From Leucoraja ocellata (lineage: Eukaryota), in assembly GCA_036785375.1 (NCBI GenBank), contig JAWMAR010000491.1:1364001-1428000 (forward strand): 64,000 bases of DNA. The letters run 5' to 3'. The notes beneath the pieces are model-generated. The model was given only the letters and a program-made list of their open reading frames with translations, did no database searches and had not been told where the DNA came from. The translations under genes and the position numbers were made by a program. Shown here in pieces: positions 30,026 through 59,197 of this stretch. The stretch's first letter is position 1. Every line of letters starts with the position of its first letter.

Positions 30026-30065
<40 letters not shown>
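29176..30065 (+). mobile_element. Rex1/Babar LINE 3' fragment with (TTGA)n tail, inserted in a CR1
   Basis: ORF 29185-29751 'VVDFRR..KFLGVQITDNLTWS..QRLHFLRKL..LLPSGKRYRS'; CR1 'gaggaaggaca|..ttgccatagaggg' is split around it. Confidence 0.9.
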
Positions 30066-30068
<3 letters not shown>

Positions 30069-30550
30069 CCATAGAGGGAGTGCAGAGAAGGTTCACCAGA
30101 CTGATTCCTGGGATGTCAGGACTTTCATATGAAGAAAGACTGGATAGACTCGGCTTGTACTCGCTAGAATTTAGGAGATTGAGGGGGGATCTTATAGAAA
30201 CGTACAAAAAGGGGTTGGACAGGCTAGATGCAGGAAGATTGTTCACGATGTTAGGGAAGTTCAGGACAAGGGGTCACAGCTTAAGGATAGAGGGGAAATA
30301 CTTTTAGGACTGAGATGAGAAAAACTTTTTTCACACAGAGAGTGGTGAATCTCTGGAATTCTCTGCCACAGAAGGTAGTTGAGGCCTGTTCATTGGCTAT
30401 ATTTAAGAGGGAGTTAGATGTGGCCCTTGTGGCTAAAGGGATCAGGGGGTATGGAGAGAAGGCAGGTACGGGATACTGAGTTGGATGATCAGCCATGATC
30501 ATATTGAATGGCGGTGCAGGCTCGAAGGGCCGAATGGCCTACTGCACCTA
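30062..30550 (+). mobile_element. CR1 3' fragment
   Basis: [22 protein letters not shown] plus CR1 3'UTR. Confidence 0.9.
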
Positions 30551-30942
30551 TTGTGTGTTGTCTATTCTCTCATCCATGAAGTGCTTTTAAAATAGTCATT
30601 GTCGTAAAGTAGGGTGCAGCAGTAATTTGCTCACAGCTCCCACAGGCGATGATATGATTGATAATGGCCGGTTAACTTTAAAAGAACATTTCCAGTAATA
30701 TCTCCCCCCACACGGTGACTTTCTTCTGACTGCCAGCAATGCATCGCCAAGCTGGCGAGGATGAGGAATCCCGCAAGAGGGTACAGAGGCTGGAGGTTTT
30801 GCGGGGACATCTAGTCGCCGCCTATTTATTACTCGTTGAGCAACATTTATTTGGCCAGATGTTGCCGCCCGGACCCTGTTTAGTGTTGGACCGCAGCACC
30901 GCCACCAACCCGCAGCTTTCTAATTATAAACGACCCCCTTGC

Positions 30943-31056
30943 CTCCGGCTCGCAGAACTTGGCTTTGTAGCAGCCGGGCTCCCTCCCCCGCGCCGCCTTC
31001 CTCGCCCGAAACTCCTCGAAAACAGAGTCGTCAAACTCGCAGCCCACGTCCGCCAT
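30943..31056 (-). CDS. C8orf76: C8orf76 homolog exon 1 (start codon)
   Basis: aacATGG; MADVGCEFDDSVFEE..YKAKFCEPE versus human EFEDSVFEE..YCAKLCEPQ; lies in a CpG-rich island; ends at donor AG|GCAAGG. Confidence 0.88.
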
Positions 31057-31126
31057 GTTGGCTCGGCATGTAGCAGCAGACAAATGGTTCCCCCGGAGCG
31101 CAGCGGAGCAGCACAAACGTTCCGGT

Positions 31127-31275
31127 CCCAGTCCCCATCCCCCAGTCCCCATCCCCCAGTCCCCATCCCCCAGTCCCCATCCCCATCCCCCATCCCAGCC
31201 CCAGTCCCCATCCCAGTCCCAGTCCCCATCCCCCAGTCCCAGTCCCCATCCCCCACCCCCCAGTCCCCAGTCCCA
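31127..31275. repeat. Imperfect (CCCAGT/CCCCAT)n tandem repeat upstream of the C8orf76 ATG
   Basis: Directly visible 6-7 nt repeat units. Confidence 0.9.
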
Positions 31276-31614
31276 GGTCCATGCGCGGACCAACATCGAC
31301 TAATAAAATAATAAACTGCTGGAGGAACTCAACGGGTTAGGCAGCATCTGTGGAGAAAAAATACAGACTCCGTTTTGAGCTGGGATCCTTCTTCGGACTA
31401 ATCAGATTCACTGCATTGTAACTGACGACGACTGGTTTTGAGCGGAGGAGTTGAGTGAAACGATCGCCGAGCCTGCTCTCGCTTGGTCTCCACACCTGGA
31501 ACAGCAGATGTGGTTGGAGGCGGTGCAAGTGAACATCTGCCTCACCTACAGGGTCCTTGGATGGAGTTGGGAGGAAGTATATGGACAGGTGTCTCTAACA
31601 AAACTACAGGTTTT

Positions 31615-31812
31615 GTTAGAAACATGGAAAATAGGTGCAGGAGTAGGCCATTCGGCCCTTCGAGCCTGCACCGCCATTCAATATGATCATGGCTGGTCAT
31701 CCAACTCAGTATCCTGTACCTGCCTTCTCTCCATACCCCCTGATCCCTTTAGCCACAAGGGCCACATCTAACTCCCTCTTAAACATAGCCAATGAACTGG
31801 CCTCAACTACCT
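31615..31812 (-). mobile_element. CR1 3' end
   Basis: gaaacatggaaaataggtgcaggagtaggcc tail, shared with the other CR1 copies. Confidence 0.85.
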
Positions 31813-32153
31813 TAGCTTTGGGTTACCTTCATATTTTCTGAGGCACAAGTCAGGAGGCTCCAATAGACCTTAATCTTATCATCTAGTCATTCATTATATA
31901 ACACAGAAACAGGCCTATGACCCAGCTCATCAATGCCAATCAAGTCGCCCAACTGAGCTTGCGCATTACCTAAATCTCTCCCAAACCTTTCCTCTTCGTG
32001 TACGTTTCCATCAAAGATCATCGAGCTTCGCTCTATAATCTTTGGTTTCCAAGTGACACCAAAATTTAAAATGTACAAGAATCTACCACTTTCTCTGGCA
32101 GCTCCTCCACCCTCCATACAGAACACCCTTTGTAAAAAACGGCTGATGGGCTT

Positions 32154-32255
32154 AAACGTGTTGGCATTGTATAATAAGGAGAGTTGGATTTCAGTGTTTC
32201 GTATTCGGTGTTTGGCTGAACCAGACTCGGGGATAAGATTAGGACCGGAATTACA
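32154..32255 (+). repeat. ERV 5' LTR remnant (R-U5 part)
   Basis: About 100 bp aligns with 45499-45604; ends in CA one base before the PBS. Confidence 0.85.
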
Positions 32256-32256
32256 T

Positions 32257-32274
32257 TGGGGACTCGTCCGGGAT
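32257..32274 (+). promoter_or_regulatory. Primer-binding site, tRNA-Pro
   Basis: TGGGGACTCGTCCGGGAT, 17/18 identical to the MLV PBS-Pro TGGGGGCTCGTCCGGGAT. Confidence 0.92.
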
Positions 32275-32841
32275 CTCAACGGATTGCCAAACATAAATTT
32301 GCGTTCAGGGAATTGAGTCGTGTCGGATTGCGAGAGAAGAAATCGGCGCAATGGTGCGACTTTCGCATCAGTTTTCCCCGCTCCGCTAAACGAAGACAAA
32401 TCGGTCATTCGCGTGCTTGTGTTTGGATTCCCAACGAGATCGATAAGATTAGTAGTCCTGGCGAAGCACTGAGGGCGAGGGTTTGAGGCCCTAGAAGGTT
32501 TGAGTCCCCGCCAAGGGGGTTAGAGGCCCCAAGGGTCTTTTGTGGGTTCACAAGGCTCTTCTCCAGCGGGTGAAAAGTCCCACACCTTTGGCAGTCAACA
32601 GCTGTTGCAATTGCAATCCACTGGTTTGGCCCAAGGTTTGAGGGTTGGTAGACACTGGGGTTTGAGGCCCCACTCAGCCTGGGGGATAAGATATTCATCC
32701 AAACATCTTGTTGCTTAAGTACATTTTGATCTTCCTCGTAGTCAAACTCATGCATGGTGGGACCCGTGCACTGTGGAAAGCTGTGACCTCTCCCCCATGC
32801 TTCTTCTTCCAACCTAAAACTACTAGCGTCTGCTAGTGACA

Positions 32842-34847
32842 ACGGGAAACCAAATTGAGATTGATACTGCAGAAGACCCTGAAAGCCCATTACAACTAGT
32901 TTGCAGTAAGTTCACTAAAGAGACAGAGAGCTTGAAGCATTTCTCAGGAACTTTGAATAAATAATTATGAGATGAGATGTGGTCTGAAGGAGGGCTTGGA
33001 ACCCTGGAGGGTGTGAGATATATTGAAAGGATTATATGGCAATGTAGTCAAAGTGAAATCACAAAGGAACTTATTGGACTGTGGAGACAATATTATGAAG
33101 GATTAAGAGAATGCAGAGAGGCTGCAATAATGGAGAATTGTCAGGAGGCAGCTTTGAAACTTGGAATAGAATTGAAAGATGATGAAGGAAACAAACCTCT
33201 AGATACCATAAAGAAGGAATGTGGATGTGCTTCTAGAGAACATAAGGAACAGGAGACAAAGAGGACTCCTGAAGGGAAACTGGCTCTTGTAGAATTAGAG
33301 TTGATGCTTTGGAAGGGTATTTGGAAGATTGGGAGAGTCTTGGTTATTTGGAAGATTAAGAGAAGTTTGCAGCCTCCACCTTATCCCCCTTGTGCTCCCT
33401 TTCTGCCACCTCCACATCCAGCACCTCATGTGCCTCACATATCTCATCCTGTGCCTGCAGCACCACTCACACCCCCTGCTGATCCTATAGTATCACCTGC
33501 TCCCAAGACAGCAGCACCAGCAGAGTTATTTTACTCCCAACAGCTCCAGCACTAACAGATATTCCAGTAACGCTGTACAAGGAGCAAGACAAAGAAAATA
33601 GCTCCCGTGTTTAAAGACAAAGTGCGATCACCAGAACCTTTTTATGATCCTAAACCTAGGAGAATAAAATGACTACCTAGAGAGACAAGATATGCATTTT
33701 AAAAATATCGCCTTCCCCCTAGTGATGAGGATGATACACTGGAGGGTGAAGTAGTCTCTGGGGACACTGAGAGCAAGTCAGACATAGGAAAAATTATGAA
33801 GGAAGACCAAATATCCCGTCGTCAGTTCCCAATGGGGAGATGCCTAACCCAGCCTTTGATCCGGCTAATGCAGTTGGTGCAAACAATCCTCGAACCATTG
33901 ATGTGTATTCCCCATGGAAACCAAATGAAATGATGGCAGTACTGAGTAAAATACCTGACAGAAAGAAATCATCTGCTTCCTTTGTGGACTATCTCCGGAC
34001 CACTATGCATGTGTATCACGTGGACTAGAGAGATTTGTGGGCTGTAATACAACAGATCATAACTCCTACAGAGCATACCAGGTTCCTAGCAACTTTAGGA
34101 CACCCAACTCACGGGGTACCGGCCAAGGTAATTGCTGATTACAATGCAAGAGAAGATGCAGTTTTAACTGCTCATGCCACTACCCTCCAAAAGCCAATAG
34201 ACATCGCTAGGATTCTGGATGTTAGACCAAAGAAAGGAGAGGGAGCAGATGAGATTTTAGAAAGGTTCTCAGAACTATATATGGGTCAGTCAGGCGATTT
34301 AAATTTTCGGAATGGGGCAAGTTCTCCCCAGTACTGCGCAATATTGTTAAACTGTCTGCCAACTAATGTAGCAGAAGCAATCAAGACAAACAACATGGAT
34401 TGGTCGGAGAACAGTGCAAGTCAAATGGCTCGGACAGTTAGGTATCACTGGAAAGATATCAGAAAACAAGAGAACCAGCCAGTAGTTAAGGCAAAAACTG
34501 AATATGTAACGAAAAAGGAGGCGCCAAGATCTAATTTAGACTTATGGAATAGTCTTCAGACAAGAGCAAGGCATGATGCGCCAGATTGGACAAGGGCACC
34601 AGAACCTGATTCTCCAGGTTACCCTGAAGAACCACCTCCCTTAGAACCAATTTGCCCAAGACTACACTGGAAAGGGGATAGTATATTGGGACCAGACCAA
34701 TGTTATACTTGCGGTGGACGAGGTCACTGGAGTGGGGAGCGCCCGACACAAAAACGACAGGAAGGAGGGGGCCAACAGAGAGAGCAAAGAGGTAACTGGC
34801 AAAGAAAATCAGGGGCAGAGAAGACAACCATCCTTCTCTCAAAATAA
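32842..34847 (+). pseudogene. gag: ERV gag (disrupted)
   Basis: ACG-GGA-AAC (mutated Met-Gly myristoylation start) is in frame with ORF 32977; PPPY late domain; capsid 'YSPWKPNEM'; degenerate knuckle CYTCGGRGHW; several stops and frameshifts. Confidence 0.85.
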
Positions 34848-35118
34848 CCCATTGTCACGTTCCTGATTAGCTAACTTGGTGGTGAACGGATGCAAATCTG
34901 ACGAAGAACCTATACTGTCATTACGAGTAGAAGGAAGGATATGCACCTTTTTGCTAGATACAGGGGCATCCATGGCATCTCTTCAATCCATTTATAACCT
35001 TCCCAAGTCTAGTGAAGTTCAGAGCCTGCCCGGATTTCAGGGACAAGTTTGCCAGCACCCTATCCCTGGGCCAATCGAAGTAGTGTACCAAGACAAAGCA
35101 GTAAAACATACATTCTTA

Positions 35119-35270
35119 AGGGCATATCCCACTTGCATTCGCACGCATAGTGCGTGATGACATAGGCAGTGACACGTGGACGCGCGCGGCGCCCCAGGTT
35201 TTTGGGATTCACAAAATCTTCGCGCGCCACCTGCGTGACGCACAAATGACGCCCAAGTGGGACAGGTCCT
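35119..35270. mobile_element. PIF/Harbinger-type MITE inside ERV protease
   Basis: TIRs AGGGCATATCCCACTTG / CAAGTGGGACAGGTCCT; TTA TSD; removing it restores KHTFLVT. Confidence 0.8.
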
Positions 35271-37629
35271 TTAGTAACCACTGAAAATTTTGCAAGAAAA
35301 GAGTCACTGGAAAACACCCCAGAACTAAAATAACAGCCAACCCCATGTTTCCCTGAAAGCACATTTTAAAGTCAGCAAAGTGGTAAAATCAGATGCTTGC
35401 ATTAACTGTGGTCAGCGAGGCTATTGGAGCAAGGAATGCCCGGCATGGAGACAAAAAGAAAAGAGACTATAGCAAGAGCAAAGGGAAGGCTGCAGAGAAA
35501 CTAAGAGGGGAGACAAAATAACTGCTAAGATGACTCGTAAAGGAAAAAATTGGAATGTGAATAATTTGGCACGGATAAGAGGACAAGAAGGAACTGCAGA
35601 GTACGTTAAAATACTTCTAGACCTATGGAAACGAGCTGCAGAAGTTGCTCCACACATCACGAGAAAGGCGAATTTTCCAGCAAGTGCAAAAGACTTGGGA
35701 GCAATGGGAAAGAAAGCAATTGATCTGGCATATCCGAATATATCTGAAGAACAGAGCGTATCTAACCAATGTACTCCCAAGTTGAGTTTGATCAGACACC
35801 CGAGGACAGTTGTTGCCCAGCTATGACAGCATCTGGGGAGTGAAGTATGTGAGTATGTGGACCTGCAAGTGTGGGCAGAAGACGCAACTCAGGTAGGATG
35901 TGTTGCATTGATCCCATCCAGGTAGCTCTCCAGAAAGGGGTGACACTGCCTTCGATACAACAGTACCCATTGAAACAACAGGCAATTCCTAATATAGATA
36001 AGCTGATTCGGGGATTGCTGGAACAAGACATCTTAGTGAAGTGCCAGTCTATTTGCAACACACCAATCCTTGCTGTGCCCGAGGCAGGAAAAGAGGGCCA
36101 GTACAGACTGGTTTGAGAACTTAAGATCTGTCAATGCAGTGGCAGAACCGCTCCATGCCTTGGTGCTAAACCCGGCTCATATTTTAGTGTTGATTCCAGC
36201 GGAAGCGAAGATTTTTTTGAAATGTAGACCTGCAGCATGTATTTATTTTTTTGAAATGTAGACCTGCAGCCAGTATTTATTTGCCTTTACTTACAGGGGG
36301 CAACAATATACATGGACAAGACTACCTCAGGGATTCATTAATTTGCCTACCTTGTTTTCTCGATTACTTCAAGAACAGTTAAGCACCTTAAATTTTAAAA
36401 GGAAATCCACTTTAGTTCAGGATGTAGACGACTTGTTAGTGGCTAGTGTAGATGAGCAGAGCAATTGTGAGGACACTGGTCAATTATTGAACCACTTGGC
36501 AACCTTAGAATATGTGGTCTCCCAGTCCAGAGTATTAATGGCTCAACAAAAAGTAAAGTTTTTGTGAGTGATAATTTCGGCCACGGAAAGAAGTCTAGAA
36601 AGCAGCAGACGAATCAATTTGCAAATTTCCTGTACCAAAAGAGGCAAAGCAGATGAGAGTGGCTCGGTGTGGCGAACTACTGCCGACCCTGGATCCCTGA
36701 TATTGCACTAGACATCAAGGAATAGACTCCTTATACTAACCTAGAGGGTGAATTTCAGTTGGCCAAAGAAGCTCAGAAAGCTTTTGAGAATTTAGAAATC
36801 TTTAATGCAGGCTCCAGCACTAGGAAGGCCACTCTACGATAGACCCTTCCAACTTTAATGTACCATCCTTTCCGAATGTTCAACTGCAGTCCTCACCCAA
36901 AAACATGGGGATTAGCACAGACCAGTGGCTTATTATTCTTCAAAGCTCGACCCAGTAACGAGAAGGCACCCAATATGCACCCAGATCTTAACAGCAATCT
37001 ATAATAGTCTACAGTCTGCTGTAAACCTGATCTAATAGCAGGAGATAGTAGTGTGCAGTTCCCATTCAGTGGCAACCTTGTTGGGACAACTGCAAACTCA
37101 GCATCTGACAATGGCTCGTCAAAACAAATATGAAATGTATCCATTGAACAATCCAAAACTCCAATTCAGACACTGTACAACTTTTAATCCAGCATCTTTC
37201 CTCATTTCACCTCCGGAGGAAGTCAGTCAGAACATTACTGTTTGTTCATAACACAAGAAGAAATATCTGCAAGGGAAGATCTAAAAGACGCTCCTATGAA
37301 GACCCTGATATGACACTGTATGTGGATGGGAGTGCATCCGTTGGGCCCCAGGGAGAGAGACTTTCTGGGTAGGCTATTGTAGACCATGATGGGAACAGTG
37401 TAGAGGCAGCTGCTTTTGAATCACCCTATTCAGCAACACAGGTTGAGCTGTTCGCTTTAATCAGAATATGTATTATTGGAAAGTATCTCAAAGTAAACAT
37501 ATATACAGATTCTAGATATGCATTTGGAGTAGTACATGGCTTTGGACAGCGGTGGAGAAATAGAGGATTCCCAACTTTGTCAGGAACTCAAATATCCCAT
37601 AAGTAGAGCCAGGATTTTGCCACTTTGAC

Positions 37630-39515
37630 CCTGTAGGTCCCTTGCAGTCAGAAACAGGTGAGTTTATCATGGGGAACAAGGATATGGCGGACCAATTGAA
37701 TAACTATTGGCTGAAGAAGGGTTTCGGCCCGAAACGTTGCCTATTTCCTTCGCTCCATAGATGCTGCTGCACCCGCTGAGTTTCTCCAGCTTTTTTGTGT
37801 AACCTCCAATTGAATAACTACTTTGGTTCCGTCTTCACTAAGGAAGACATAAATAATTTGCCGGAAATAGCAGGGGACCGCGGTTAGGCGGGAAGTGGTG
37901 TTGGGTAAATTGAATGGATTAAAGGCCGATAAATCCCCAGGGCCAGATAGGCTGCATCCCAGAGTACTTAAGGAAGTAGCTCCAGAAATAGTGGATGCAT
38001 TAGTAATAATCTTTCAAAACTCTTTAGATTCTGGAGTAGTTCCTGAAGATTGGCGGGTAGCAAACGTAACCCCACTTTTTAAGAAGGGAGGGAGAGAGAA
38101 AATGGGGAATTACAGACCAGTTAGTCTAACATCGGTAGTGGGGAAACTGCTAGAGTCAGTTATTAAAGATGGGATAGCAGCACATTTGGAAAGTGGTGAA
38201 ATCATTGGACAAAGTCAGCATGGATTTACGAAAGGTAAATCATGTCTGACGAATCTTATAGAATTTTTCGAGGATGTAACTAGTAGCGTGGATAGGGGAG
38301 AACCAGTGGATGTGGTGTATCTGGACTTCCAGAAGGCTTTCGACAAGGTCCCACATAAGAGATTAGTATACAAACTTAAAGTACACGGCATTGGGGGTTC
38401 AGTATTGATGTGGATAGAGAACTGGCTGGCAAGCAGGAAGCAAAGAGTAGGAGTAAACGGGTCCTTTTCACAATGGCAGGCAGTGACTAGTGGGGTACCG
38501 CAAGGCTCAGTGCTGGGACCCCAGCTATTTACAATATATATTAATGATCTGGATGAGGGAATTGAAGGCAATATCTCCAAGTTTGCGGATGACACTAAGC
38601 TGGGGGGCAGTGTTAGCTGTGAGGAGGATGCTAGGAGACGGCAAGGTGACTTGGATAGGCTGGGTGAGTGGGCAAATGTTTGGCAGATGCAGTATAATGT
38701 GGATAAATGTGAGGTTATCCATTTTGGTGGCAAAAACAGGAAAGCAGACTATTTTCTAAATGGTGGCCGACTAGGAAAAGGGGAGATGCAGCAAGACCTG
38801 GGTGTCATGGTACACCAGTCATTGAAAGTAGGCATGCAGGTGCAGCAGGCAGTGAAGAAAGCGAATGGTATGTTAGCTTTCATAGCAAAAGGATTTGAGT
38901 ATAGGAGCAGGGAGGTTCTACTGCAGTTGTACAGGGTCTTGGTGAGACCACACCTGGAGTATTGCGTACAGTTTTGGTCTCCAAATCTGAGGAAGGACAT
39001 TATTGCCATAGAGGGCGTGCAGAGAAGGTTCACCAGACTGATTCCTGGGATGTCAGGACTGTCTTATGAAGAAAGACTGGATAGACTTGGTTTATACTCT
39101 CTAGAATTTAGGAGATTGAGAGGGGATCTTATAGAAACTTACAAAATTCTTAAGGGGTTGGACAGGCTAGATGCAGGAAGATTGCTCCCGATGTTGGGGA
39201 AGTCCAGGACAAGGGGTCACAGCTTAAGGATAAGGGGGAAGTCCTTTAAAACCGAGATGAGAAGAACTTTTTTCACACAGAGAGTGGTGAATCTCTGGAA
39301 CTCTCTGCCGCAGAGGGTAGTCGAGGCCAGTTCATTGGCTATATTTAAGAGGGAGTTAGATGTGGCCCTTGTGGCTAAGGGGATCAGAGGGTATGGAGAG
39401 AAGGCAGGTACAGGATACCGAGTTGGATGATCAGCCATGATCATATTGAATGGCGGTGCAGGCTCGAAGGGCCGAATGGCCTACTCCTGCACCTAATTTC
39501 TATGTTTCTGTTTCT
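37630..39515 (+). mobile_element. Young 5'-truncated CR1 with open RT ORF (37895-39430)
   Basis: 511-aa uninterrupted RT C-terminal ORF and CR1 3' tail. Confidence 0.95.
37707..37805 (+). mobile_element. Penelope-like ~100-bp unit with hammerhead core (37711-37738)
   Basis: CTGAAGA-A-GGGT-TTCG-GCCC-GAAACGTT; 15-bp TSD CCAATTGAATAACTA (37692-37706, 37806-37820). Confidence 0.85.
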
Positions 39516-39644
39516 AAATGCCATGTGCCTTTTCATGCCTTTTTTGATGATTTCAGGAATCCTTTTTCAGGATCGTGCTTAAATCAGTCTTTTTTGCCGT
39601 TTTAACATAATTTACAAGAACATTTACACCACCGGGGAAAACCT

Positions 39645-40080
39645 GGGTGTAAGTGGGTGTTAAGTGGTGATTGAAGAGAGGTGCGTGGGAAAGGGTCCAG
39701 TCTTTGCAAATTGGAGTCATGCTTTAAGTTGGTGTGAAGTGGTGATTGGGGAGGAGTAGGTGAAGGGTCCAGTCTTTTCAAACTGGAATCAAGCTGTGAG
39801 TAGGTGTGAAGTGTTGGTTGGGGTTACCGGCGTTAAGATTCTGTTTATCGAAACTACAGTTGAATTCGTTCAGGTCGTTGGTCAGCTGACTATTGTCCAA
39901 GGACCGGGGGGTTTTCCTCTTGTAGCTTGTGATTTCTTGCAAACACTTCCATAGTGAAGAAGAGTCATTTGCTGAGAACTTGTTCCTCAAATTCTCAGAG
40001 TACCTTTCCTTGGCAGCTCTGATTCCTCTTCTTAGCTTGTACTTGTAGAGGTCTGCGTCCCCGCTCCTGTAGGATCTACC
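39645..40080 (-). mobile_element. Rex1/Babar LINE internal fragment
   Basis: 'YRSGDADLYKYKLRRGIRAAKERYS..SSLWKCLQEITSYK..LNEF', a typical Rex1 ORF segment. Confidence 0.7.
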
Positions 40081-40500
40081 CTTGCAAGCGTCAAAAATGC
40101 CTAAAGTCAAGTCAACACCTTGTAAAAAACTGAACGATTTAGTGAGAGTGTATGGGAGTGATATATTCTCTACAGACAATTGTGTGCTGTTTTGCAATGC
40201 ATGTGAGAAAACATCCTGGCTCTACTCATAAGCAATTGGTGACTGATTTATTGAAGGCTCTGCTGCTACCTAGGCAAATTTTGGTAATGAAGTGTAGCAC
40301 TCACACAAAGGGACAGACCCCGAAAGACATGGGGAATCGCTGTGCTGATCAAACAGCAAAGGAGGTATCCCTGGAACGCAAGGTGGTGGTGCCAAAGATG
40401 AGGCAATAAAAAGTTCAAGTAACAAATCTCACTCGAAAAAGCCACTGCCAACCATCTAGGAAATTATTCAGTTGCAAATAGATGCTCCTGAAGGGGGATA

Positions 40501-43500
40501 CAGTGGCTTGCAAAAGTTTTCATACCACTTGAACTTTTCCACATTTTGTTACGTTACAACCACAAACGTAAATGTATTTTATTGGGATTTTATGTGATAG
40601 ACCAACACAAAGTGGCGCATAATTGTGAAGTGGAAGGAAAATGATACATGGTTTTCACATTTTTTTACAAATAAAAAACTGAAAAAAGTGTGGTGTGCAA
40701 AAGTATTCAGCCCCCTTTACTCTGATACCCCTAAATAAAATCCAGTGCAACCAATTGCCTTCAGAAGTCACCTAATTAGTAAATAAAGTCCACTTGTGTG
40801 TAATCTAATCTCAGTATAAATACAGCTGTTCTGTGAAGGCCTCAGTGGTTTGTTAGAGTACATTAGTGAACAAACAGCATCATGAAGCCCAAGGAACACA
40901 CCAGACAGGTCAGGGATAAAGTTGTGGAGAAGTTTAAAGCAGGGTTAGGTTATAAAAAAATATCCAAAGCTTTGAACATCTCACGGACCACTGTTCAATC
41001 CATCATCCGAAAATGGAAAGAGTATGGCACAACTGCAAACCTACCAAGACATGGCCGTCCACCTAAACTGACAGGCCGGGCAAGGAGAGCATTGATCAGA
41101 GAAGCAGCCAAGAGGCCCATGATAACTCTGGAGGAGCTGCAGAGATCCACAGCTCAGGTGGGAGAATCTGTCCACAGGACAACTATTAGTCGTGCACTCC
41201 ACAAATCGGGCCTTTATGGAAGAGTGGCAAGAAGAAAGCCATTGTTGAAAAAAAGCCACAAGATGTCCCGTTTGCAGTTTGCCACAAACCATGTGGGGGA
41301 CACACCAAACATGTGGAGGAAGGTGCTCAGATGAGACCAAAATTGAAGTTTTTGGCCTAAATGCAAAACGCTATGTGTGGCGGAAAACTAACACTGCACA
41401 TCACCCTGAACACACCATCCCCACTGTGAAACATGGTGGTGGCAGCATCATGCTGTGGGGATGCTTTTCTTTAGCAGGGACAGGGAAGCTGGTCAGAGTT
41501 GATGGGAAGATGGATGGCGCCAAATACAGGGCAATCTTGGAAGAAAACCTGTTAAGAGTCTGCAAAAGACTTGAGACTGGGACGGAGGTTCACCTTCCAG
41601 CAGGACAACGACCCTAAACATAAAGCCAGAGCTACAATGGAATGGTTTAGATCAAAGCATATTCATGTTTCATTGTTTAAAAAGGGTTCTAAGAGTAAAC
41701 CTAGCAATTATAGACCTGTTAGTTTGACTTCAGTGGTGGGCAAATGGAAAAGATATTTAGAGATAATATATATAAGCATCTAGATAAACAGGGTCTGATT
41801 AGGAACAGTCAACATGGGTTTGTGCCTGGAAGGTCATGTTTGACTAATCTTCTTGAATTTTTTGAAGAGGTTACTAGGGAAATTGACGAGGGTAAAGCAG
41901 TGGATGTTGTCTATATGGACTTTAGTAAGGCCTTTGACAAGGTTCCTCATGGAAGGTTGGTTAAGAAGGTTCAACTGTTGGGTATAAATGCAGGAATAGC
42001 AAGATGGATTCAACAGTGGCTGAATGGGAGAAGCCAGAGGGTAATGGTGGATGGCTGTTTATCGGGTTGGAGGCAGGTGACTAGTGGGGTGCCTCAGGGA
42101 TCTGTGTTGGGTCCTTTGTTGTTTGTCATGTACATCAATGATCTGGATGAAGGCGTGGTAAATTGGATTAGTAAGTATGCAGATGATACCAAGATAGGGG
42201 GTGTTGTGGATAATGAAGAGGATTTCCAAAGTCTACAGAGTGATTTAGGCCATTTGGAAAAATGGGCTGAAAGATGGCAGATGGAGTTTAATGCTGATAA
42301 ATGTGAGGTGCTACACCTTGGCAGGACAAATCAAAATAGGATGTACATGGTAAATGGTAGGGAATTGAAGAATACAGTTGAACAGAGGGATCTGGGTATA
42401 ACCGTGCATAGTTCCTTGAAGGTGGAATCTCATATAGATAGGGTGGTAAAGAAAGCTTTTGGTATGCTAGCCTTTATAAATCAGAGCATTGAGTATAGAA
42501 GCTGGGATGTAATGTTAAAATTGTACAAGGCATTGGTGAGACCAAATCTGGAGTATGGTGTACAATTTTGGTCGCCCAATTATAGGAAGGATGTCAACAA
42601 AATAGAGAGAGTACAGAGGAGATTTACTAGAATGTTGCCTGGGTTTCAACAACTAAGTTACAGAGATAGGTTGAATAAGTTAGGTCTTTATTCTCTGGAG
42701 CGCAGAAGGTTAAGGGGGGACCTGATAGAGGTCTTTAAAATGATGAGAGGGATAGACAGAGTTGATGTGGACAAGCTTTTCCCTTTGAGAATAGGGAAGA
42801 TTCAAACAAGAGGACATGACTTCAGAATTAAGGGACAGAAGTTTAGGGGTAACATGAGGGGGAACTTCTTTACGCAGAGAGTGGTGGCGGTGTGGAATGA
42901 GCTCCCAGTGGAAGTGGTGGAGGCAGGTTCATTGGTATCATTTAAAAATAAATTGGATAGGCATATGGATGAGAAGGGAATGGAGGGTTATGGTACGAGT
43001 GCAGGCAGGTGGGACTAAGGGGAAAAAAATTTGTTCGGCATGGACTTGTAGGGCCGAGATGGCCTGTTTCCGTGCTGTAATTGTTATATGGTTATGTGTT
43101 AGAATGGCCCAGTCAAAGTCCAGACCTAAATCCAATTGTGAATCTCTGGCAAGACTTGAAAATTGCTGTTCACAGACGCTCTCCATCCAATCTGACTGAG
43201 CTTGAGCTATTTTGCAAAGAAGAATGGGCAAAAATGTCAGACTCTAGATGTGCAAAGCTGGTAGAGATATACCCCCAAAAGACTTGCAGCTGTAATTGCA
43301 GCGAAAGGCAGTTCTACAAAGTATTGACTCAGGGGGGCTGAATACTTTTGCACACCACACTTTTCAGTTTTTTATTTGTAAATAAATTTGAAAACCATGT
43401 ATCATTTTCCTCCACTTCACAATTATGCACCACTTTGTGTTGGTCTATCACATAAAATCCCAATAAAATACATTTACGTTTGTGGTTGTAACGTGACAAA

Positions 43501-43543
43501 ATGTGGAAAAGTTCAAGGGGTATGAAAACTTTGCAAGCCACTG
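40501..43543 (+). mobile_element. Tc1 (DD34E, Passport-like, IR/DR) transposon; transposase pseudogene 40882-43327
   Basis: TA TSDs; ~215-bp TIRs CAGTGGCTTGCAAAAG..; [59 protein letters not shown](V)NLW; frameshifts, catalytic E changed to V. Confidence 0.95.
41669..43093 (+). mobile_element. CR1 RT fragment inserted in the Tc1 transposase
   Basis: 424-aa RT ORF 41744-43018 (KYADD); splits transposase KHIH|VLEWPSQS; short ATGT duplication. Confidence 0.95.
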
Positions 43544-44804
43544 TATAATATTATGGAAACAGCTTGGATGTACAATAGATTGTATGTCGGGATTGTGGGT
43601 TACTCCAGCAGGGCAGACTGGTATGACAGATCTTCTTGCAGATTGGGTTGTGGAGTGCACGTATTTTGCGACTCACTGTGGTGCAAGAGCAATTGGTGAT
43701 GCTTTCAGCTACAAGGGTGGCATCCAAGATTACAAACTTTCGCCCAAAAAGTGAGTAGTTGCTGTATTATTTGTCAGAAATATAATCCTGGGAAAGGAGT
43801 GGGTTGTGAGGATGGAAGAACACCTTTGCCCATGGGTCCTTTTGAAACTCTTCAAATGGATTATGTCGAGCTGGAGAAGTGCCAAGGATATTGATATATA
43901 CTTGTGATTGTCGATGTATTCAGCAAATGGATCGAGGCCTGCCCAACACTTGATAACAAAGCGGCTACTGTTGTCAAGGTGCTCCTGCAAGAAATTATCC
44001 CTAGATTCTGTATCCCAATTCGGCTTAGTTCTGACAATGGTCCTCATTTCATTGGGCAAATTAATAAAGAATTCTGTGAACAGCTGGGCATCCAACAGCA
44101 ACTGCACTGTGCTTATCGACCACAGGCTGCTGGACCTGTCAAATGTGCAAATCAGACCCTGAAAACTAAATTAGCTAAATTGAAGGCGGAGACAGGAATT
44201 AGTTGGATCAAATTACTCCCTGTAGCTTTGTTTCAGATGTGTGTCACGCCTGCAGGGAAATCGAGACTGAGCCCAGCTGAAATTGTTTATGGATGTCCTT
44301 TAAGAACCCCGTCGAGCCAAAATGCCACAGAGGCAGTGTTTCCATCACATGACTACGGAGATGACCAATTACGTTCTGACCTTGCCTCAGGCACTAAGGG
44401 ATTTGCATACTAGGGTGCGAGCAATATATAATGAATTACCTCCTTTGGTTTCTTCCATTAAGGTCAAGCCTGGTGATTATGTACTAGTGAAGAATTGGGT
44501 AAGGAAAGGTTTGGAGGCTTGGTGGGAGGGACCTTACCAGGGTCTCCTGACGATTCCAACCACTGTTAAGGTAGAAGGAAGGAATGCGTGGGTCCATCTT
44601 CACCATTGTAAGAGTATTAGTGGAAGAGTGAGCTGCTAACTTGTTTAATTCAAGGATTTTTTTTAGGTATAGGAACATCGTACCCATCGAGAATCAAGAG
44701 TACATTAAGCTAACGTGATGGACAAAGAGGATTCATGCCCATGCAAACTCGGGAGATGGAGACTCGTCAGTCAGAAATCATGAAAAATCAGGAAGTTATT
44801 TAGA

Positions 44805-45299
44805 GTTTAAACAAAGCCTATATTTTACTCAGAAATAAAATATGTGGTGTATGGATTTTTCTTTACGGAAGTAATCTTGCAGCTCACGGAAGAAAACGAG
44901 AATTGATGATTCTCCATATTGGTTCTTTATTCAAAGGCTCCACTGAAGACTTTTACTTATTTGCTGTTCCAAAAGAATAAATGTAAATCTATCAGGAAAT
45001 TTATAAGCAGTCTTTTAAAACTCTTTCATCGACACAATAGTTGCTCCTCACCGTAGCATTTTCAATTAGCTTCAAGATGTTTGCAGGACATAAATATTAA
45101 TCGTCTTCTAAAGTAATATTCATATTTGTAGTTTCTAAGATATTTAATGAAAGATCATTCTGCCTTGCTATCAAAAATTCCTTCAATGGCCATATTTATT
45201 CTATTTCAACTAACCAACTCGCGTACCTCTGGACGTTTTGCTTTTTCTATGTTGTTACCAACGTTTAATTAACCGAGGAAATGCAAGAGAAGACAGGAA
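44805..45299 (+). repeat. Copy of host segment 50179-50674 inside the ERV, flanked by duplicated viral sequence (44622-44807 / 45296-45457)
   Basis: Direct visual alignment, about 25 differences in ~495 bp; junction microhomologies GTT and GGAA. Confidence 0.95.
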
Positions 45300-45498
45300 G
45301 AGTGAGCTGTTAACTTGTTTTCATCAAGGATTTTTTTTTAGGTATAGGAACATCGTACCCATCGAGAGTCAACTGTACATTAAGCTGCCCATGCAAACTC
45401 GGGAGATGGAGACTCGTCAGTCAGAAACCATGAAAAATCGGGAAGTTATTTAGAGTTCTGATAAAGTAAATTGCCATCATTGTTAAATTGTAGAACAG

Positions 45499-45604
45499 AA
45501 ACAGTATTGGTGTTGTATAATAAAGGGAGTTGGATTCCAGTGTTTTGTATTTTTGATGTTTGACTGAACCAGACTAGGGGGGTAAGATTAGGACCGGAAT
45601 TACA
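45499..45604 (+). repeat. ERV 3' LTR remnant
   Basis: Matches the 5' remnant; AATAAA at 45519-45524; ends TTACA. Confidence 0.85.
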
Positions 45605-46307
45605 TAATCAGTACCTTGTCAAAGATTTTGCTAACTCCATGTACACGAGGTCTTCTGCACTTTCCCCGTCAATTTTCCTTGTCATCGCTTCAAAAAATAA
45701 AAACATTATGAGACAAACCTCCCATAAACAAAGCCATGCTGACAATCCTTTTTGCCCTTCCTTACTACCCTCTTAAATGTAAAAAGGTGAAAGTTATTTA
45801 ACCAGTATCCAGGGGTCTAGCAAATTTCATTCCTGCAAATGCTTCGAACTTAACTTGAAAGAAAGAAATTCAACTTTTAAATTTCACAGGTGATCATATG
45901 GCAGTAAAATATCATTAATTTATTCAACTACCAAGTTATTTGAAAAAAAAAAATCATGTTTTTCAGGGAAGGAAACCTTCAATCCTTAACCAGTCTCCTC
46001 TCCACTATCACAGCCGGATCCCCTCCTGATGCCTCTGTGGTGCAGACCCAGGCCCCAGCCACAGGGCTCCAGTTCCGACCCACGGTGGGGTCCCCCCTCC
46101 AGTTCAGGTAAAATCTGTCCCTCTTGTCCAGGTCATCTCTGCCCCAGAAGAGATCCCAATGGTCCAAAAATATGAATCCCTATCTCCTGCACCAAATCAG
46201 CCATGACAGCACTGTCCCAAGTTCATATACTACCATCATTAACATGTGGCACAGGGAATAATCTGTAGATCACTGTCTTAGAAGTCCTGCGTTTTACCTT
46301 TGCCTAA

Positions 46308-46489
46308 TGCCCCTGTCCCACTTAGGAAACCTGAACGGAAACCTCTGGAGCCTTTGTGCCCACCGTGCGGTTCCCGGAGGTTTTTGTCAGTCTCCCTACC
46401 TGCAACCTCCGGGAACCGCACGGAAACCTTGGGTGGGGCGCAAAGTCTCCAGAGGTTTCCGTTCAGGTTTCCTAAGTGGGACAGGGGCA
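46308..46489. mobile_element. PIF/Harbinger-type MITE
   Basis: About 43-bp perfect TIRs TGCCCCTGTCCCACTTAGGAAACC..; TAA TSD. Confidence 0.9.
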
Positions 46490-47158
46490 TAACTCCCTAT
46501 ATTCATTGTGCAGCACCTCAACCCTTTTCCTATTTATGCCAATGTGCACAACAACTTTTGGCTGCTCACTTTCCCCCTTGAGAATGTTCTGCAGCCGCTC
46601 TAAGACTTCCTGGATCGTGGCACCAGGGAAACTGCACACCATCCTGGAGTGTCATTTGTAGCCACACAATCTCCTGTTTGTCCCCTTAATGATAATCTCC
46701 TGTCACTGTAGTCCTATCTGACTTCAGCCTATCGTACCGTGCCTCAGAGCCAGGTCTAGTGTACAGACCCTTTCTGCTGGTAACACAGCCTTATAACTAA
46801 AAAAACTAGACATTCCGGTGTTCAAGTTGTTGACTTTGTGTGTCAGTGTGACCAGACATGTTTAGCATAGCACTGATGGGAAACAATGCAGAGCTTGTGT
46901 TCAGTTCCCATCGTATGAAGTGTTGCCCATGATCATGGCAAGATGGAAGAACAGTTCAGTTCCCACATATCCAGATCAATATCAGTTCCACAAATCTACA
47001 TTATTTAATAATCATTATCTAATTATTATCACATCACTGTTCTATGGAAGCCTACCATGGACATATTATCCACCAAGTGACTATATTTCACAATGATTCA
47101 ATACATTTTTCAAGGGCAGGTTTACTTTAGTTTAGAGACACAGCATGGAAACTGGCAC

Positions 47159-47247
47159 ACAAAAAAAGCTGGAGAAACTCAGCGGGTGCAGCAGCATCTA
47201 TGGAGCGAAGGAAATAGGCAACGTTTCGGGCCGAAACCCTTCTTCAG
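47159..47247 (-). mobile_element. Penelope-like ~90-bp unit with hammerhead core (47219-47247)
   Basis: Core identical to the one at 37711; 11-bp TSD GAAACTGGCAC (47148-47158, 47247-47257). Confidence 0.85.
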
Positions 47248-48004
47248 AAACTGGCACTTTGGCCCTGAGTCCATGTCAACTATTGATCACCCATTCACAT
47301 TGGTTCTGTGCTCTCCCACTTTTGTATCCACTCCCTGCACACCAGGGACAATTTACAGAGGTCACTTACCTACAACTCTACAGGTCTTTGGAATGTGGGA
47401 GGAAACCAGAGCACCCGGAGGAAATCCACATGGTTCACAGGGAGAACGTGCAAACTCTTGTTGAGAGATTAAATGTCAGCAGTTTACATTGGTTTTTCAC
47501 CACGTTTACTTTTTCATAATCTCACTGAGGTTCAAAGGTTCGAGACCCACAACAGTCTATGAGCATTGACATCAGGGGATCGTACATTACTTAATTTCAA
47601 GGTAAATAGATCACTTGGGATAAGGAAAGGTAATAGGTCTGAGAATGTGGACTCAGAAAAATGAATCACTGCTTTGGCTGTGATTCACCTAATCTCAGGT
47701 ATTCACGCTTTGTCTTACCCACTTTTCTGAATTTTCCCCGTTGCATTACTTCTCCCAGATCCGTGCCACATATTTGCAAGTTTAATCCATCTCTTTGTTC
47801 AACCCGACTTGATTTTCTTCTAAAAATAATATAATTGTTTCAACACTAACAAAGATAATGCGGTACTCAGCCAGCAATAAATAAAAAGTTCAAACATTTT
47901 CCTTTTACGGCACGTTACGAAACAATCAATGAAAATGTACAAATGCAGAGTAATAAAAACGTCTGCTGCAGACATACAGAAAGTAGCACAAAATCTAACT
48001 CAAT

Positions 48005-50630
48005 AAATCACAGCATCGAGATTTATTTTGAAACATTATATTCACATATTACAATCATTGTATCGTAGTCAATGGAAAATGACATCAGATCTACAAACAC
48101 AACTTTCAAGACAGATCTGCAAAAAAGAACTAAACAGATCTGTTTTAAAAAAATCCATGGCAAAAAAGCAGATAAAATATTTCAAAAAATAACAATAAGC
48201 CTTTACAAAATCTCCACAAATCTGTATAATGTGCTGTTACCTTGAAACTGCTCAGAATGGTATATGTGCTGGCTGATTATATTGGATAGTCACAGATATT
48301 CTTAAAACAAGATTGCAGTGCAAACCCAAAATAAGGGCAAGTATGAGGGTACTGTGAAGATTTATTGGACTTTTGAGTTGGGAGAGAGGACTATTTGTAA
48401 ATGGCAAGAACAGTTCTGCAAGGCCTGTAACTAATGCCGTAGCCAAAAAGACTCAAGTCACTGGGTTACGTAACAATAAAATTATGATTCGATAACAAGG
48501 TATCTTGGGGGAAAAAAATCAACATGTGATGTATTAAGGCCTCTACAATTTTGATTAAATATGAACTCTGACACTTCAAAACTCCTTCATTTTATTTTCT
48601 ACACAATTCTTCTTGAGGAGGGGTCTAAAAAAATGGAGAGGATACAATGAGCACTATTTCGAGTTCCATTTAGAAAAATGCATGGGCTGGTTATTTTCTC
48701 ATCATTCATTACTGCAGTGATAACTATTAACATTTTTAAAACACGATGCTATATTTTTACGATGACTAGTTCTCCGTGCAAACTAAAACCTGCAGCACCA
48801 GCAAGCCAGAACAAGTATTAGGTCCCACTAGCTAGTATTTCCCAAATGTGTTTGGAACAACAAATTGCATAGTAATGTGCAACAAAAGCTTTTGCCAAAT
48901 TACCATTGGTATACTTTTTTAAACCTGAAGATCTGACCAAGCCCAATGTCCATATTATTATAAATTTACACTTCAAATTTCATCATGATCCAGATGAATA
49001 TTAAAACTGTGAAGGAAAATTAAAAGTTTAACTATTTTTGAGAATTGCTAGTGCAGGCCCAAATATTATCATGACTTGCATGTGCCAGTAGAGGTTAGAC
49101 AGCCAAAGTTACAATCTAATAATGATGAAACTTTGAAGAATCTAGTATACAGTACTTGTATAATAACCGTGCAAATACGTTTTGCATAATAAAATTGCGC
49201 ATTCACCAGCCATGACTGTAGTCATGATTGAAATTTGTATAGAGATCAACATTTTCTATAGAAATAGGTATCTAAAACTAAATTTGACTGGTTTACCTCA
49301 CCATTAGTGCTTCGTAGATTTTTTTTTCTTAATTTTCAGAAAATAATCTAAACAATAAGTACTGAAAGTGATGAGCATGAATGGTCAATTCTTGAACAAG
49401 CAAAACATACTAACTACAGATAGCTACTGTAGTGAATTGCTAACTACTAAAAGTAAAATAATCTCTTCAATGTTTATTCTCACAGTACACATAGAAGTAC
49501 AATAAATAGTGTGGAAAAATTAGAACTGTTTTTTGTTTTTCAAACCACAGCTTGCAACCCCCTTAACGCATATAATATTTAAATACTATATATTATATAA
49601 ATGTAGTACTGTATATATAGAAGCAACATTTTTCTAATTTCAGCATACAAAATGACTTGCAGAAGTTACCAAAAAATACTAGCAATTGGAATATGGCTTC
49701 TGATGAAAATAAGTAGAGGGAAACAACTCTGCTGGCTTTATCTACACCTACAATAAATGTCATTTCAAGTAGCTACTAAAGACTAAAGCATAGAATTGAG
49801 GAGATTGAGGAGGTGTTTTTCCAGCACATGTACAAAAAACACCATGCATAATTATGTCACAAATATAAGCGTTTACATTTCTTTACTGATAAGTGATTAC
49901 CAGTATTTTAATCTATTGCGATCAGATAGCTCATATTTTACTCCAACTGCAGAATCAGGCGAGGGCAAACTATTACATCAGACTGAACCAAACTGCACAG
50001 TTGATGTTAAGAGCTTGCTAAAATCTAAAAAAAAAAAAAAATTGTGCTCAAAGATATCTCCAAAATTAAACTTCAGTAAAAATGTAATAAAATCCCAAAC
50101 TGTACAAATTTGACCCTTAACAATAGCTATATACAAAAGTTATTTTCAGTTGTATTAAAACTTTGGCAATGTGGAAATGTTTAAAAAAAAGCCTATATTT
50201 TACTCAGAAATAAAATGTGTGGTGTATGGATATTTCTTTATGGAAGTAATCTTGCAGCTCACAGAAGAAAACGAGAATTGATGATTCTCCATATTGGTTC
50301 TTTATCCAAAGGCTCCACTGAAGACTTTTACTTATTTGCTGTTCCTAAAGAATAAAAGTAAATCTATCAGGAAATGTATAAGCAGTCTTTTAAAACTCTT
50401 TCATAGATACAATAGTTGCTCCTCACCGTAGCATTTTCCATTAGCTTCAAGATGTTTGCAGGACATAAATATTAATCGTCTTCTAAAGTAATATTCATAT
50501 TTGCAGTTTCTAAGATATTTAATGAAAGATCATTCTGCCTTGCTATCAAAAATTCCTTTAATGGCCATATTGATTCTATTTCATCTAACCAACCCACGTA
50601 CCTCTGGATGTTTTGCTTTTTCTATGTTGT
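48005..50630 (-). other. ZHX1: Probable ZHX1 terminal non-coding (3'UTR) exon
   Basis: Repeat-free AT-rich 2.6 kb; minus-strand AATAAA at 48022-48027; pyrimidine tract and AGs near 50620-50680; ZHX1 CDS ends at a splice donor. Boundaries approximate. Confidence 0.55.
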
Positions 50631-50712
50631 TACTCGGATTTAAATAACCGAGGAAATGCAAGAGAAGACAGGAATAAATTAATTCCATACGTCAATTGGG
50701 AATGATCTATAC

Positions 50713-56515: not shown

Positions 56516-59197
56516 CTAGTGTTCATCATCTGGTTCAGTTACTTCATTTTCTTTTTGCGATGGAGGCTTCCACACATCACTGCTGCCACTTCCTTCAGAA
56601 GCATCATCTTCATTCTCTTCACCAGCCCAATCATCATCCTCTTCAAGTGGCTCATTTTTCTCATCTTCACCAGGGTACTGTCCATTTGAATTGTTGCTCT
56701 CCGAAACAACAACTTCCGTTTGCCTTTGTACAAACCATTCCCTGATATTTTCATAACTCATGCCTGATTTTGCCACAAGATCATCAAGATCTTCTTCATT
56801 TAAATATTTGTGTTTCAAGTAATATGGTTCAAGAAAATTTCTCCCTGAAGCGAGTTCCGTAGATACTTTGCTTGACGTCATTCCGCTCCAGTTGCGAGAC
56901 CTTCCATTCCCCCTTGCTCTTCCTCTTCCTCGTGGTCTGCCTCTCAATCTACCTCTACCTTTAGTCCTTCTGGAGGAAACCTGGGTTTGCCCATTTTGAG
57001 TGTCCATGTTACCACTTTGATAATAATAGTACCATTTCAAGTTGCCATTTTTCCAAGCATACCTGGTATCTCCGAACCAACTTACAATATCAGTTCTGGC
57101 CAGCCCAGTGTCTAGAGCTAATTGGTCATATACCTCTGGGGATGGCCAGTGCGTGCGAACAAATGCGCTTTTAAGCAGATGTAGCTGCTCTGGAGTTTTC
57201 TTATATAGTCTGCTAACTGCAGTTGCCATTACTCTTGGAATTGCTAAGCCACTGGCCAAAGATGTGGTATGAATTTGCCCATATTGTGATTTTGTGCTCC
57301 CTGCATCAGAGTCCTTATGTTTGACATCAACTTCGCCGTCTATCAATTTTCCGCTCTCATCATTTTTATCTTCTGAATTTTTAATTTTCCTCCTCTCACA
57401 AAACCAGACGTCAATCTCTCTTCTAGTGAGTTTTGTTTCAGTCCTTAGCTTGTTAATCTCATCATCAGTGGGAAATGGACTAAAATGAAAACTTTCTTGG
57501 AGAATCTGAAGCTGTTCTGCGCTTTTCTCTTTGAACTTCTGAGGAGTAAAATCTGGGAAAGCATGCCACCCATGTTTACGTTGCTGATTTACTGCAAGCG
57601 ATTCAGAAATCATGTCATCTCCAGAATCCAAAATGATGGTGCTGCTGACTTCAGCAATATTGACATTTTGATTACATTTTGAATTTCTATGGTTGTACCG
57701 TGTATCACTGAACCACTTCTTTATGTCACCTCTTGTGAGGCCTGATATTTGTATGATTCTAGCAATTTCTGCATCACTGGGAAATGCATTCCTATTGAAG
57801 CTGGCTTTTAGTTCATTCAGTTGCTCTTTTGTCTTTTTGAGGCGGACGATGTATGGATCTGTACTCGAGACAGAATTAAGGGAACTTCCTTGTGAAGCAA
57901 ATTGAGGAAGCTGAGAGTTGTTTAGCCGTTTTACTTCAGGCCCTGTCTCACCCTCCTGCATTCTGCGCTTTTGCCACTGCATTTGATTTGTAACTCCTGC
58001 AACGGTGACAGTGACCGGAGAATTCCCAGTGACCACGTTTTTACTGGTAACCTGTGCCAAGACAATACCTGGCTGACCAACTATCTGACAAGGTTGGAGG
58101 ATCTGCTGCAATCCATTAGCAGATGTTGAAATCTGTGCAGGTATGACTGTAATTGTTTGCGGTATAGTGTGCACAGTGCCATTAAATTGTCTCTTTTTGG
58201 CATCTTCCACCTCCTCTGGGGTCCAGCTGATGCCATGCTTGAGCCGTTGAGCAGTGAACCAGATTTTAATCTGTTCCTCTGTATATTTTGTCTGAGTTTT
58301 TAACGTTACAACTTCTGACTGCGTAGGATAGGGAAATTTGTTGAATGAGTTCACTAGGTGAGTATTTACATCCATATTAGTGTTATAAGTTGGAATGCTG
58401 TTTAATGGAATCATAACTTTTGGAATACAATTAGAATTTGGAGACTGTATCAATTGGCTAATACCTACTGAATCAATTATAACACCATTTCCTTCTTGGT
58501 TAATACAAATTCCACTGGTACTAGTAGATCCCAAGACCGAGTTGGTGCCCATTGTCTCATCGTTGTTTTCTTGTCTAGCTGTGAATTCATCCACAAAACT
58601 TGGAGACAGAGAGATTCTTTTGGTCTCATTTTTATTTTTTATCTTCATGATTGGCGTTTTACTTATTGATATTCCTGTCGGAGTGGTGTCAATGTTTTCG
58701 GACTGATCTTCATTTGTAGGAACCCCATTACTATTGCATTCTTCAACAGTCTGTTCAAAGACAGTTTGATTGTTGTGTTTCACCATTTTAAGCTTAAAAT
58801 TTATTTCACCCGAATGATATCTAGCATTGTGGTCATTAAGAGTATCATACCTTTTGGTCATAAAATTACATTCCATACAGAAATAGGATGGATTGAGAAT
58901 AACATTTGGGTGCTTTGAGTCAACGTGCACTGTAAATTCATTTAAGTCTTGTGTTTCAAAAGTGCAATATTTACACTCATAGCCTCCTTCTAGTTTCTTG
59001 ATTTGGTTATCTTGTACTTCCTTTTCTGCAATATTCTCATCATCAACTACAGCACCATCTGCTGCCATACTCTCATCAGAAGTGTCTGGAGGAAGATCAT
59101 CATCAACATCTGTAATCATATCCAGATCTTGGTTCTGATCCAGAGTTTCATTTGCAGGGACCATGCAAGGAATTTTAGACTTCCTTTTGCTGGCCAT
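56516..59197 (-). CDS. ZHX1: Zinc fingers and homeoboxes protein 1 (2 C2H2 fingers, 5 homeodomains), single coding exon, 893 aa
   Basis: accATGG start MASKRKSKIPCMV; GGYECKYC..HVDSKH, CMECNF..H; homeodomains IKIWFTAQR, IKKWFSDTR, IDVWFCERR, IVSWFGDTR, IREWF; exon acceptor at 59301; synteny with C8orf76. Confidence 0.96.
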   Translation of the reverse strand: MASKRKSKIPCMVPANETLDQNQDLDMITDVDDDLPPDTSDESMAADGAVVDDENIAEKEVQDNQIKKLEGGYECKYCTFETQDLNEFTVHVDSKHPNVILNPSYFCMECNFMTKRYDTLNDHNARYHSGEINFKLKMVKHNNQTVFEQTVEECNSNGVPTNEDQSENIDTTPTGISISKTPIMKIKNKNETKRISLSPSFVDEFTARQENNDETMGTNSVLGSTSTSGICINQEGNGVIIDSVGISQLIQSPNSNCIPKVMIPLNSIPTYNTNMDVNTHLVNSFNKFPYPTQSEVVTLKTQTKYTEEQIKIWFTAQRLKHGISWTPEEVEDAKKRQFNGTVHTIPQTITVIPAQISTSANGLQQILQPCQIVGQPGIVLAQVTSKNVVTGNSPVTVTVAGVTNQMQWQKRRMQEGETGPEVKRLNNSQLPQFASQGSSLNSVSSTDPYIVRLKKTKEQLNELKASFNRNAFPSDAEIARIIQISGLTRGDIKKWFSDTRYNHRNSKCNQNVNIAEVSSTIILDSGDDMISESLAVNQQRKHGWHAFPDFTPQKFKEKSAEQLQILQESFHFSPFPTDDEINKLRTETKLTRREIDVWFCERRKIKNSEDKNDESGKLIDGEVDVKHKDSDAGSTKSQYGQIHTTSLASGLAIPRVMATAVSRLYKKTPEQLHLLKSAFVRTHWPSPEVYDQLALDTGLARTDIVSWFGDTRYAWKNGNLKWYYYYQSGNMDTQNGQTQVSSRRTKGRGRLRGRPRGRGRARGNGRSRNWSGMTSSKVSTELASGRNFLEPYYLKHKYLNEEDLDDLVAKSGMSYENIREWFVQRQTEVVVSESNNSNGQYPGEDEKNEPLEEDDDWAGEENEDDASEGSGSSDVWKPPSQKENEVTEPDDEH

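Follow-up and report, generated by a model that had tools for sequence, protein, structure and literature searches.

A segment from the 3' region of ZHX1 copied between duplicated viral blocks inside a decayed provirus of Leucoraja ocellata, probably by local DNA synthesis

In the 64,000 nt of Leucoraja ocellata DNA analysed here, referred to as the window (contig JAWMAR010000491.1, positions 1,364,001 to 1,428,000), a decayed retrovirus-like insertion with broken frames lies on the plus strand between ZHX1 and a DUF5588 gene. Inside this insertion a copy of a host segment from the 3' region of ZHX1 (X', 44806-45299) stands between a viral block (A, 44622-44807) and a second copy of the same block (A', 45296-45457). 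The arrangement A-X'-A' is a real, old local duplication common to related organisms. It was probably made on DNA after integration of the provirus, by one event of repair or replication restart with two template switches, and is probably inert.

In a self-comparison of the window, X' was colinear with its genomic donor X (50181-50674) over 494 nt without gaps and with 94.7% identity. The 26 differences comprise 13 transitions and 13 transversions, five of the 26 being clustered at 45259-63, which confirms the copy between two A blocks and the approximately 25 differences counted by eye in an earlier sequence-only reading. That reading had also placed the donor 5.4 kb downstream in the same orientation, and both segments indeed lie on the plus strand with a start-to-start distance of 5375 nt. 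Block A comprises the last integrase codons and 3' non-coding viral DNA, overlaps the end of the MLVIN_C frame and contains an acceptor-like motif at 44666. Its plus-strand repeat A' lacks 25 nt and shows 9 mismatches in 161 columns. The LTR remnant described behind the second block is present, but it does not follow immediately: 47 further internal viral bases (45458-45504, plus strand) come first, then about 707 nt are missing in comparison with the family copy L011, and only after this stand the last 100 nt of the LTR. This deletion, which has GT at its join in the comparison with L011 and L008, removed the purine tract and the greater part of the 3' LTR that L011 retains.

The microhomology proposed for the junctions was found at both joins, with an overlap of GTT at join 1 and of GGAA at join 2. 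Among 200,000 simulated random virus-host joins, at least three letters were shared in 5.8% and at least four in 1.9%, which corresponds to a joint chance of about 0.002. Past the exact overlaps the similarity was not significant at either join (P=0.13 and 0.56). Splicing as the origin of the joins was ruled out by eye: however the overlaps were shifted, neither strand offered GT..AG or an equivalent. Microsimilarity at both joins fits retroviral transduction and a DNA route alike and is therefore not diagnostic.

A search of the whole 3.4-Gb assembly with X returned four candidates, two at the window locus and two at the matching locus of a second contig, C287. A dispersed repeat family was ruled out accordingly, since X lacks many copies and all four places belong to this one locus in two contigs. 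C287 carries a second copy of the region that is about 98% identical and has its own insertions and deletions; it is probably the other haplotype. Between positions 2747500-2751000 of C287 and 29175-43094 of the window the two copies of the region show a strong structural difference. C287 is without window positions 34800-40208, where about 600 other bases are found instead, and also without the inserts 29176-30064, 40646-40991 and 41669-43093. At the place of the 5' LTR it has 200 N.

Moreover, contigs from four public runs were aligned to positions 44700-46300. They represent organism A, a further sample of the study from which the window may derive, and organisms B, C and D from three other studies. 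Join 1 was bridged in at least three of the four runs (organisms A, B and D), join 2 also in at least three (A, B and C), and all four organisms show at least one join. The flanks differ from the window at 16 of 599 positions in organism B, 15 of 568 in C and 17 of 591 in D. The join between LTR and host at 45604 was crossed by a contig in all four runs with 28-30 letters on the viral side, which is below our 31-letter rule and thus suggestive. An orthologous provirus without the insert was not seen in the four runs over 44700-46300. Because a second contig carries the arrangement and the joins are bridged in organisms from three other studies, the duplication is not an assembly error, nor is it a private variant. 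The notion of an assembly artefact, against which the 5% divergence of the copies and the variants specific to the second contig also speak, is refuted and retains practically no probability.

X' contains 11 CpG sites and X contains 6, and it had been suggested that the proviral copy keeps CpGs that were lost from the host copy. This is partly right. The site at 44866 was lost in X, as C stands there in the contigs of organisms B, C and D, and 44888 and 45234 are losses private to X of the window contig. The CpG at 45221 is a gain private to X' of the same contig.

The provirus resembles an env-less endogenous retrovirus with an MLV-type integrase C-terminus. A reverse transcriptase fragment (36262..36567, Pfam RVT_1, E 1.8e-10) and an integrase remnant in two frames (43895..44639, rve, E 5e-14, and MLVIN_C, E 7.7e-15) are recognisable on its plus strand, and at least 40 family matches were scored. 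The best PDB matches of the integrase core were foamy-type entries with modest E-values, and these do not give its placement. The 5' end of the element is lost. What is left of the 5' LTR (32158-32255, plus strand) is followed on the same strand by an 18-nt primer-binding site at 32257-32274, presumably of the tRNA-Pro type. The 3' LTR remnant (45504..45604, plus strand) corresponds to approximately the last 100 nt, matches the family LTR ends and shows 12 mismatches to the 5' remnant over 98 positions; in the family copy C371 the LTR measures about 760-790 nt. Both remnants consist of the last 100 nt or so only, and within the family LTR both begin at one and the same GTATTG-rich spot. That the two LTRs, lying between two genes, are without their upstream parts might be due to selection against interference or to a slippage-prone spot.

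Within pol, inverted arms of 218 nt (40498-40715 and 43333-43546) flank a transposase-like frame at 40870-41617, which we take to be of the Tc1 type, and this insertion is itself interrupted by a LINE-like frame (41723-43018). A 184-nt self-complementary element, MITE-like by its shape, is located at 46307-46490.

The family was sampled from 304 candidates, of which 40 were scored and 30 returned as loci. We read 28 other loci, corresponding to about 18 independent ones after near-identical loci had been paired by eye. Five near-identical copies (L024-L028) follow one another on contig C692 with a spacing of about 78 kb, which suggests a large tandem segmental array. Block A was present once per locus, save for a weak second partial match in L022, and X was found in 0 of the 28 loci, which represent the best-scored part of the 304 candidates. 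The purine tract is located 271-286 nt past the start of A in 16 of the 28 loci and at 686 nt in one, with no pattern match in 11; a distance of 271-286 nt leaves no room for env, and env is absent from the family copies read. The "env position" assigned to the insert in the sequence-only reading is thus to be understood positionally. The LTR end lies 1021-1172 nt past A in 12 of the 28 loci.

In a tree of 32 block-A rows, A and A' of the window and of C287 formed one clade of four local blocks with a support of 98/94. A and A' share a 14-nt deletion and five substitutions that occur in 0-2 of the 28 other copies, while rare changes number about one in A alone and three, together with the 25-nt deletion, in A' alone. 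A 24-nt pattern across the 14-nt deletion, searched with at most one mismatch, matched only the four local places; given copies that are about 9% diverged, this test would catch an estimated one third of sister copies. The changes common to A and A' could also derive from an unsampled viral progenitor.

X and X' differ at 26 of 494 positions and A and A' at 9 of 161, and this equal divergence (P=0.84) is what one event predicts. The pooled duplicates (35/655, 5.3%) are less diverged than the two LTR remnants (12%, with a 95% interval of 6.5-20% on 98 sites; P=0.013) and than the nearest family integrase (58/688, 8.4%; P=0.031). They are more diverged than the flank of organism D (P=0.033). In another family copy the LTR pair differs by 8.1%. 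Judged by these sequence divergences, the simplest order would be integration, some decay, duplication and then the split of the four organisms. The copy would hence have been made in place, on DNA and after integration, because X is confined to a single locus and absent from the family loci read, A and A' are sisters, and the divergence of the duplicates is lower.

The dating is soft, given the small LTR sample and signs that short tracts were converted between X and X' over 5.4 kb. The donor letter is found at 44817 in the window contig and at 44931 in C287, where the relatives retain the other letter (chance of about 0.006 under a rough model), and organism D has T at 44873 in both X and X'. 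Gene conversion would depress the divergence between X and X' as well as between A and A' and make the duplicates look younger. A 344-nt stretch for which organism D has one contig for both X and X' was not counted as a long conversion tract, since bubble removal during contig building fits it equally well.

Host sequence that was taken up by retroviral transduction is often located 3' of pol, and the insert sits at such a place. According to classical transduction, a virus would have taken up ZHX1 RNA and the chimera would have integrated here. The provirus would then have landed within 5.4 kb of its donor in a 3.4-Gb assembly, for which the odds are about 1 in 10^5 to 10^6. Besides, the insert is antisense to the ZHX1 mRNA relative to the viral RNA, and the duplicates look younger than the LTR pair. 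No chimera was encountered away from the donor or in further copies, and the host insert did not replace viral sequence, as A is duplicated. We regard this origin as largely refuted and exceedingly improbable. The sequence-only reading had left two inferences side by side: the local templated insertion is supported by our data, and transduction is disfavoured, with no other provirus carrying X and a duplication that looks younger than the integration.

In a variant of transduction, the product is written back into the parent provirus. On the viral sense strand X follows the provirus; therefore, a read-through RNA could contain it, and such an RNA could have been reverse-transcribed with two switches and its cDNA recombined into the provirus. 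Reverse transcriptase is able to produce the identical order of sequences, most of the 3' LTR is missing here, and in a Drosophila study a double switch at short overlaps has been documented in LTR elements (PMC5131818). The inserts described there replaced viral sequence in all cases, with a median overlap of 6 bp and a new integration as the model, as opposed to the duplicated viral sequence, the overlaps of 3-4 bp and the product next to its donor in our case. The event also seems to be later than the locus-specific decay, and X is absent from sister copies. Among the matches listed for cDNA recombination with read-through, none concerned write-back into a vertebrate provirus, as judged by title and start of the abstract. 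We therefore consider this route unlikely. Still less probable is its extended form, in which the provirus took up its downstream flank by transduction, the chimeric cDNA was written back into it, and the resulting antisense copy of the ZHX1 3' region, still present in related species, may feed small RNAs against ZHX1.

We favour a single event on DNA. DNA synthesis would have run to the end of A, left the provirus there and resumed 5.4 kb downstream with GTT as the primer; after copying 494 nt it would have returned on GGAA to the start of A. Since the return point lies 186 nt before the exit point, A would have been copied twice. Point changes, the 25-nt deletion and probably short tracts of gene conversion would have followed later. 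The sequence re-replicated at the return point comes from the same locus, as the sister blocks A and A' have private changes in common. Templated inserts made by Pol theta (TMEJ) are typically short and local. Pol theta had been proposed earlier as one possible agent, but with an insert of 494 nt and a donor at a distance of 5.4 kb it is unlikely.

The same product could also have arisen in two DNA steps, first a 6.05-kb tandem duplication of 44622-50674 with the GGAA join and then a 5.4-kb deletion in the first copy with the GTT join. This route yields the observed order A-X-A-LTR-spacer-X, and its end product is letter for letter identical to that of the single event. Other deletions have affected the provirus as well: block A lost 25 and 14 nt, the 3' end lost about 707 nt, and in C287 a large internal part is missing. 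However, two rare events are needed, the second of which has to end neatly inside the first copy, and no intermediate was found among the four runs over 44700-46300. Two steps are thus a doubtful, though not negligible, alternative to the single event.

Similar captures have been described for other elements. The available text on Pack-TIRs reports that 160 of 281 single-copy cases (56.9%) lie within 15 kb of the donor with a median microhomology of 2 bp, and that 91 of 97 primate cases were captured after insertion of the element (PMC8277862). The duplication favoured here as a single event shares with single-copy Pack-TIRs, which are attributed to transposition-independent gap filling, the single copy, a donor in cis at less than 15 kb, short microhomology, an internal breakpoint and a capture inferred to be post-insertion (PMC8277862, available part). 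In contrast to these, our element is an LTR retroelement and no TIR transposon, 186 nt were copied again with no gap left, and no outgroup without the capture was found among the four organisms (PMC8277862, same part). Likewise, in cycles of templated insertion, as presented in the accessible portion of PMC7025897, a copied segment is inserted, the path returns and part of the host chromosome is re-replicated, for which block A would be the counterpart. Those cycles are somatic, typically join different chromosomes and string together two to seven templates, whereas the present case is germline, with one local template and 0.7 kb in total (PMC7025897, same portion). LTR-mediated retroposition or retroviral transduction, as far as the accessible text of PMC5131818 describes it, resembles our case in the host sequence within an LTR element and in the short overlaps at both joins. 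It differs in that here neither a new integration site nor further copies were found, viral sequence was duplicated, and the insert has an antisense orientation to the host mRNA, with no lost intron shown (PMC5131818, accessible text).

The host gene in question is identified by a minus-strand coding exon of 893 aa (56516..59197) with the Pfam domains zf_C2H2_ZHX, Homeodomain and Homez, and the four best PDB matches are ZHX1. On the other side of the provirus the first coding stretch of the DUF5588 gene (30883..31059, minus strand) matches PF17826 with an E-value of 3e-6, which is below the cut-off for this piece; more matching minus-strand stretches follow at lower window coordinates. We take this gene to be C8orf76. 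We found no paper that combines ZHX1, C8orf76 and an endogenous retrovirus, and the literature on ZHX1-C8orf76 contained, judged by title, none on this question. X, located by the genome search, belongs to the last intron or the 3' UTR of ZHX1.

It had been proposed that the insertion duplicates a viral splice acceptor and may add a second acceptor of the ZHX1 type. The acceptor-like motif is indeed doubled, but in the family copies read it is followed by no env, and our home-made acceptor score did not rate 44666 highly. Over 448 AG sites, this score, which cannot single out the true acceptor, ranked 50024, 51024, 53353, 50344, 56023, 50977 and 50912 as the top seven. Within X the best-scoring acceptor is the one with its exon start at 50344 (rank 4 of 448). 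It reads TG for AG in X' of both contigs, and a second ZHX1-type acceptor is not supported. At this site the contigs of organism B have the AG letter in both copies and organism C shows both letters. Of two possible donors after the ZHX1 stop, the one assumed at 56515 is the poorer match: by a simple count on the minus strand, the candidate donor at 56492 (AAT/GTAAGT) agrees with 8 of 9 consensus positions at the ZHX1 exon end and 56515 with fewer than 7.

Between the two contigs, X' differs at 6 of 493 and X at 6 of 491 positions, compared with 34 of 2363 in neutral sequence (P~0.83). The segment 48310-49200, one of 13, shows only 2 differences in 891 nt (P=0.002), as low as the ZHX1 coding exon; judged by this sequence conservation, it is likely to be the constrained core of the 3' UTR. 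Minus-strand AATAAA motifs are found at 48027, 48366 and 48596. The longest open frame over A-X'-A' has 79 codons, and X' likely does nothing, as far as its sequence indicates.

An effect of X' on ZHX1, either as a source of antisense or small RNA directed at the 3' region or by providing a spare 3' end on the minus strand, appears very unlikely. ZHX1 lies on the opposite strand to the provirus; therefore, X' read as viral RNA is antisense to ZHX1 RNA, and a plus-strand transcript of it would have 95% complementarity to any ZHX1 RNA containing X. Such small-RNA cross-talk from captured fragments is described for maize in the available part of one report (10.1101/777037). In addition, X' was kept in four organisms and contains a minus-strand AATAAA at 45200 that is absent from X, a difference fixed in both contigs. 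On the other hand, AATAAA is frequent in A+T-rich DNA, X' is unconstrained between the contigs, its best acceptor is gone, and both LTRs are without the upstream parts where a promoter would be expected.

When a provirus contains host DNA and the two joins show microhomology, this looks like retroviral transduction, and local copying of DNA can produce the picture as well. Copy number, the distance to the donor and the ages of the parts discriminate between the two. The duplication would gain greater importance only if X' proved to be transcribed against ZHX1. The pair of X and X' could be used to gauge gene conversion over short range, and the two joins are a clean character uniting the organisms in which they occur.
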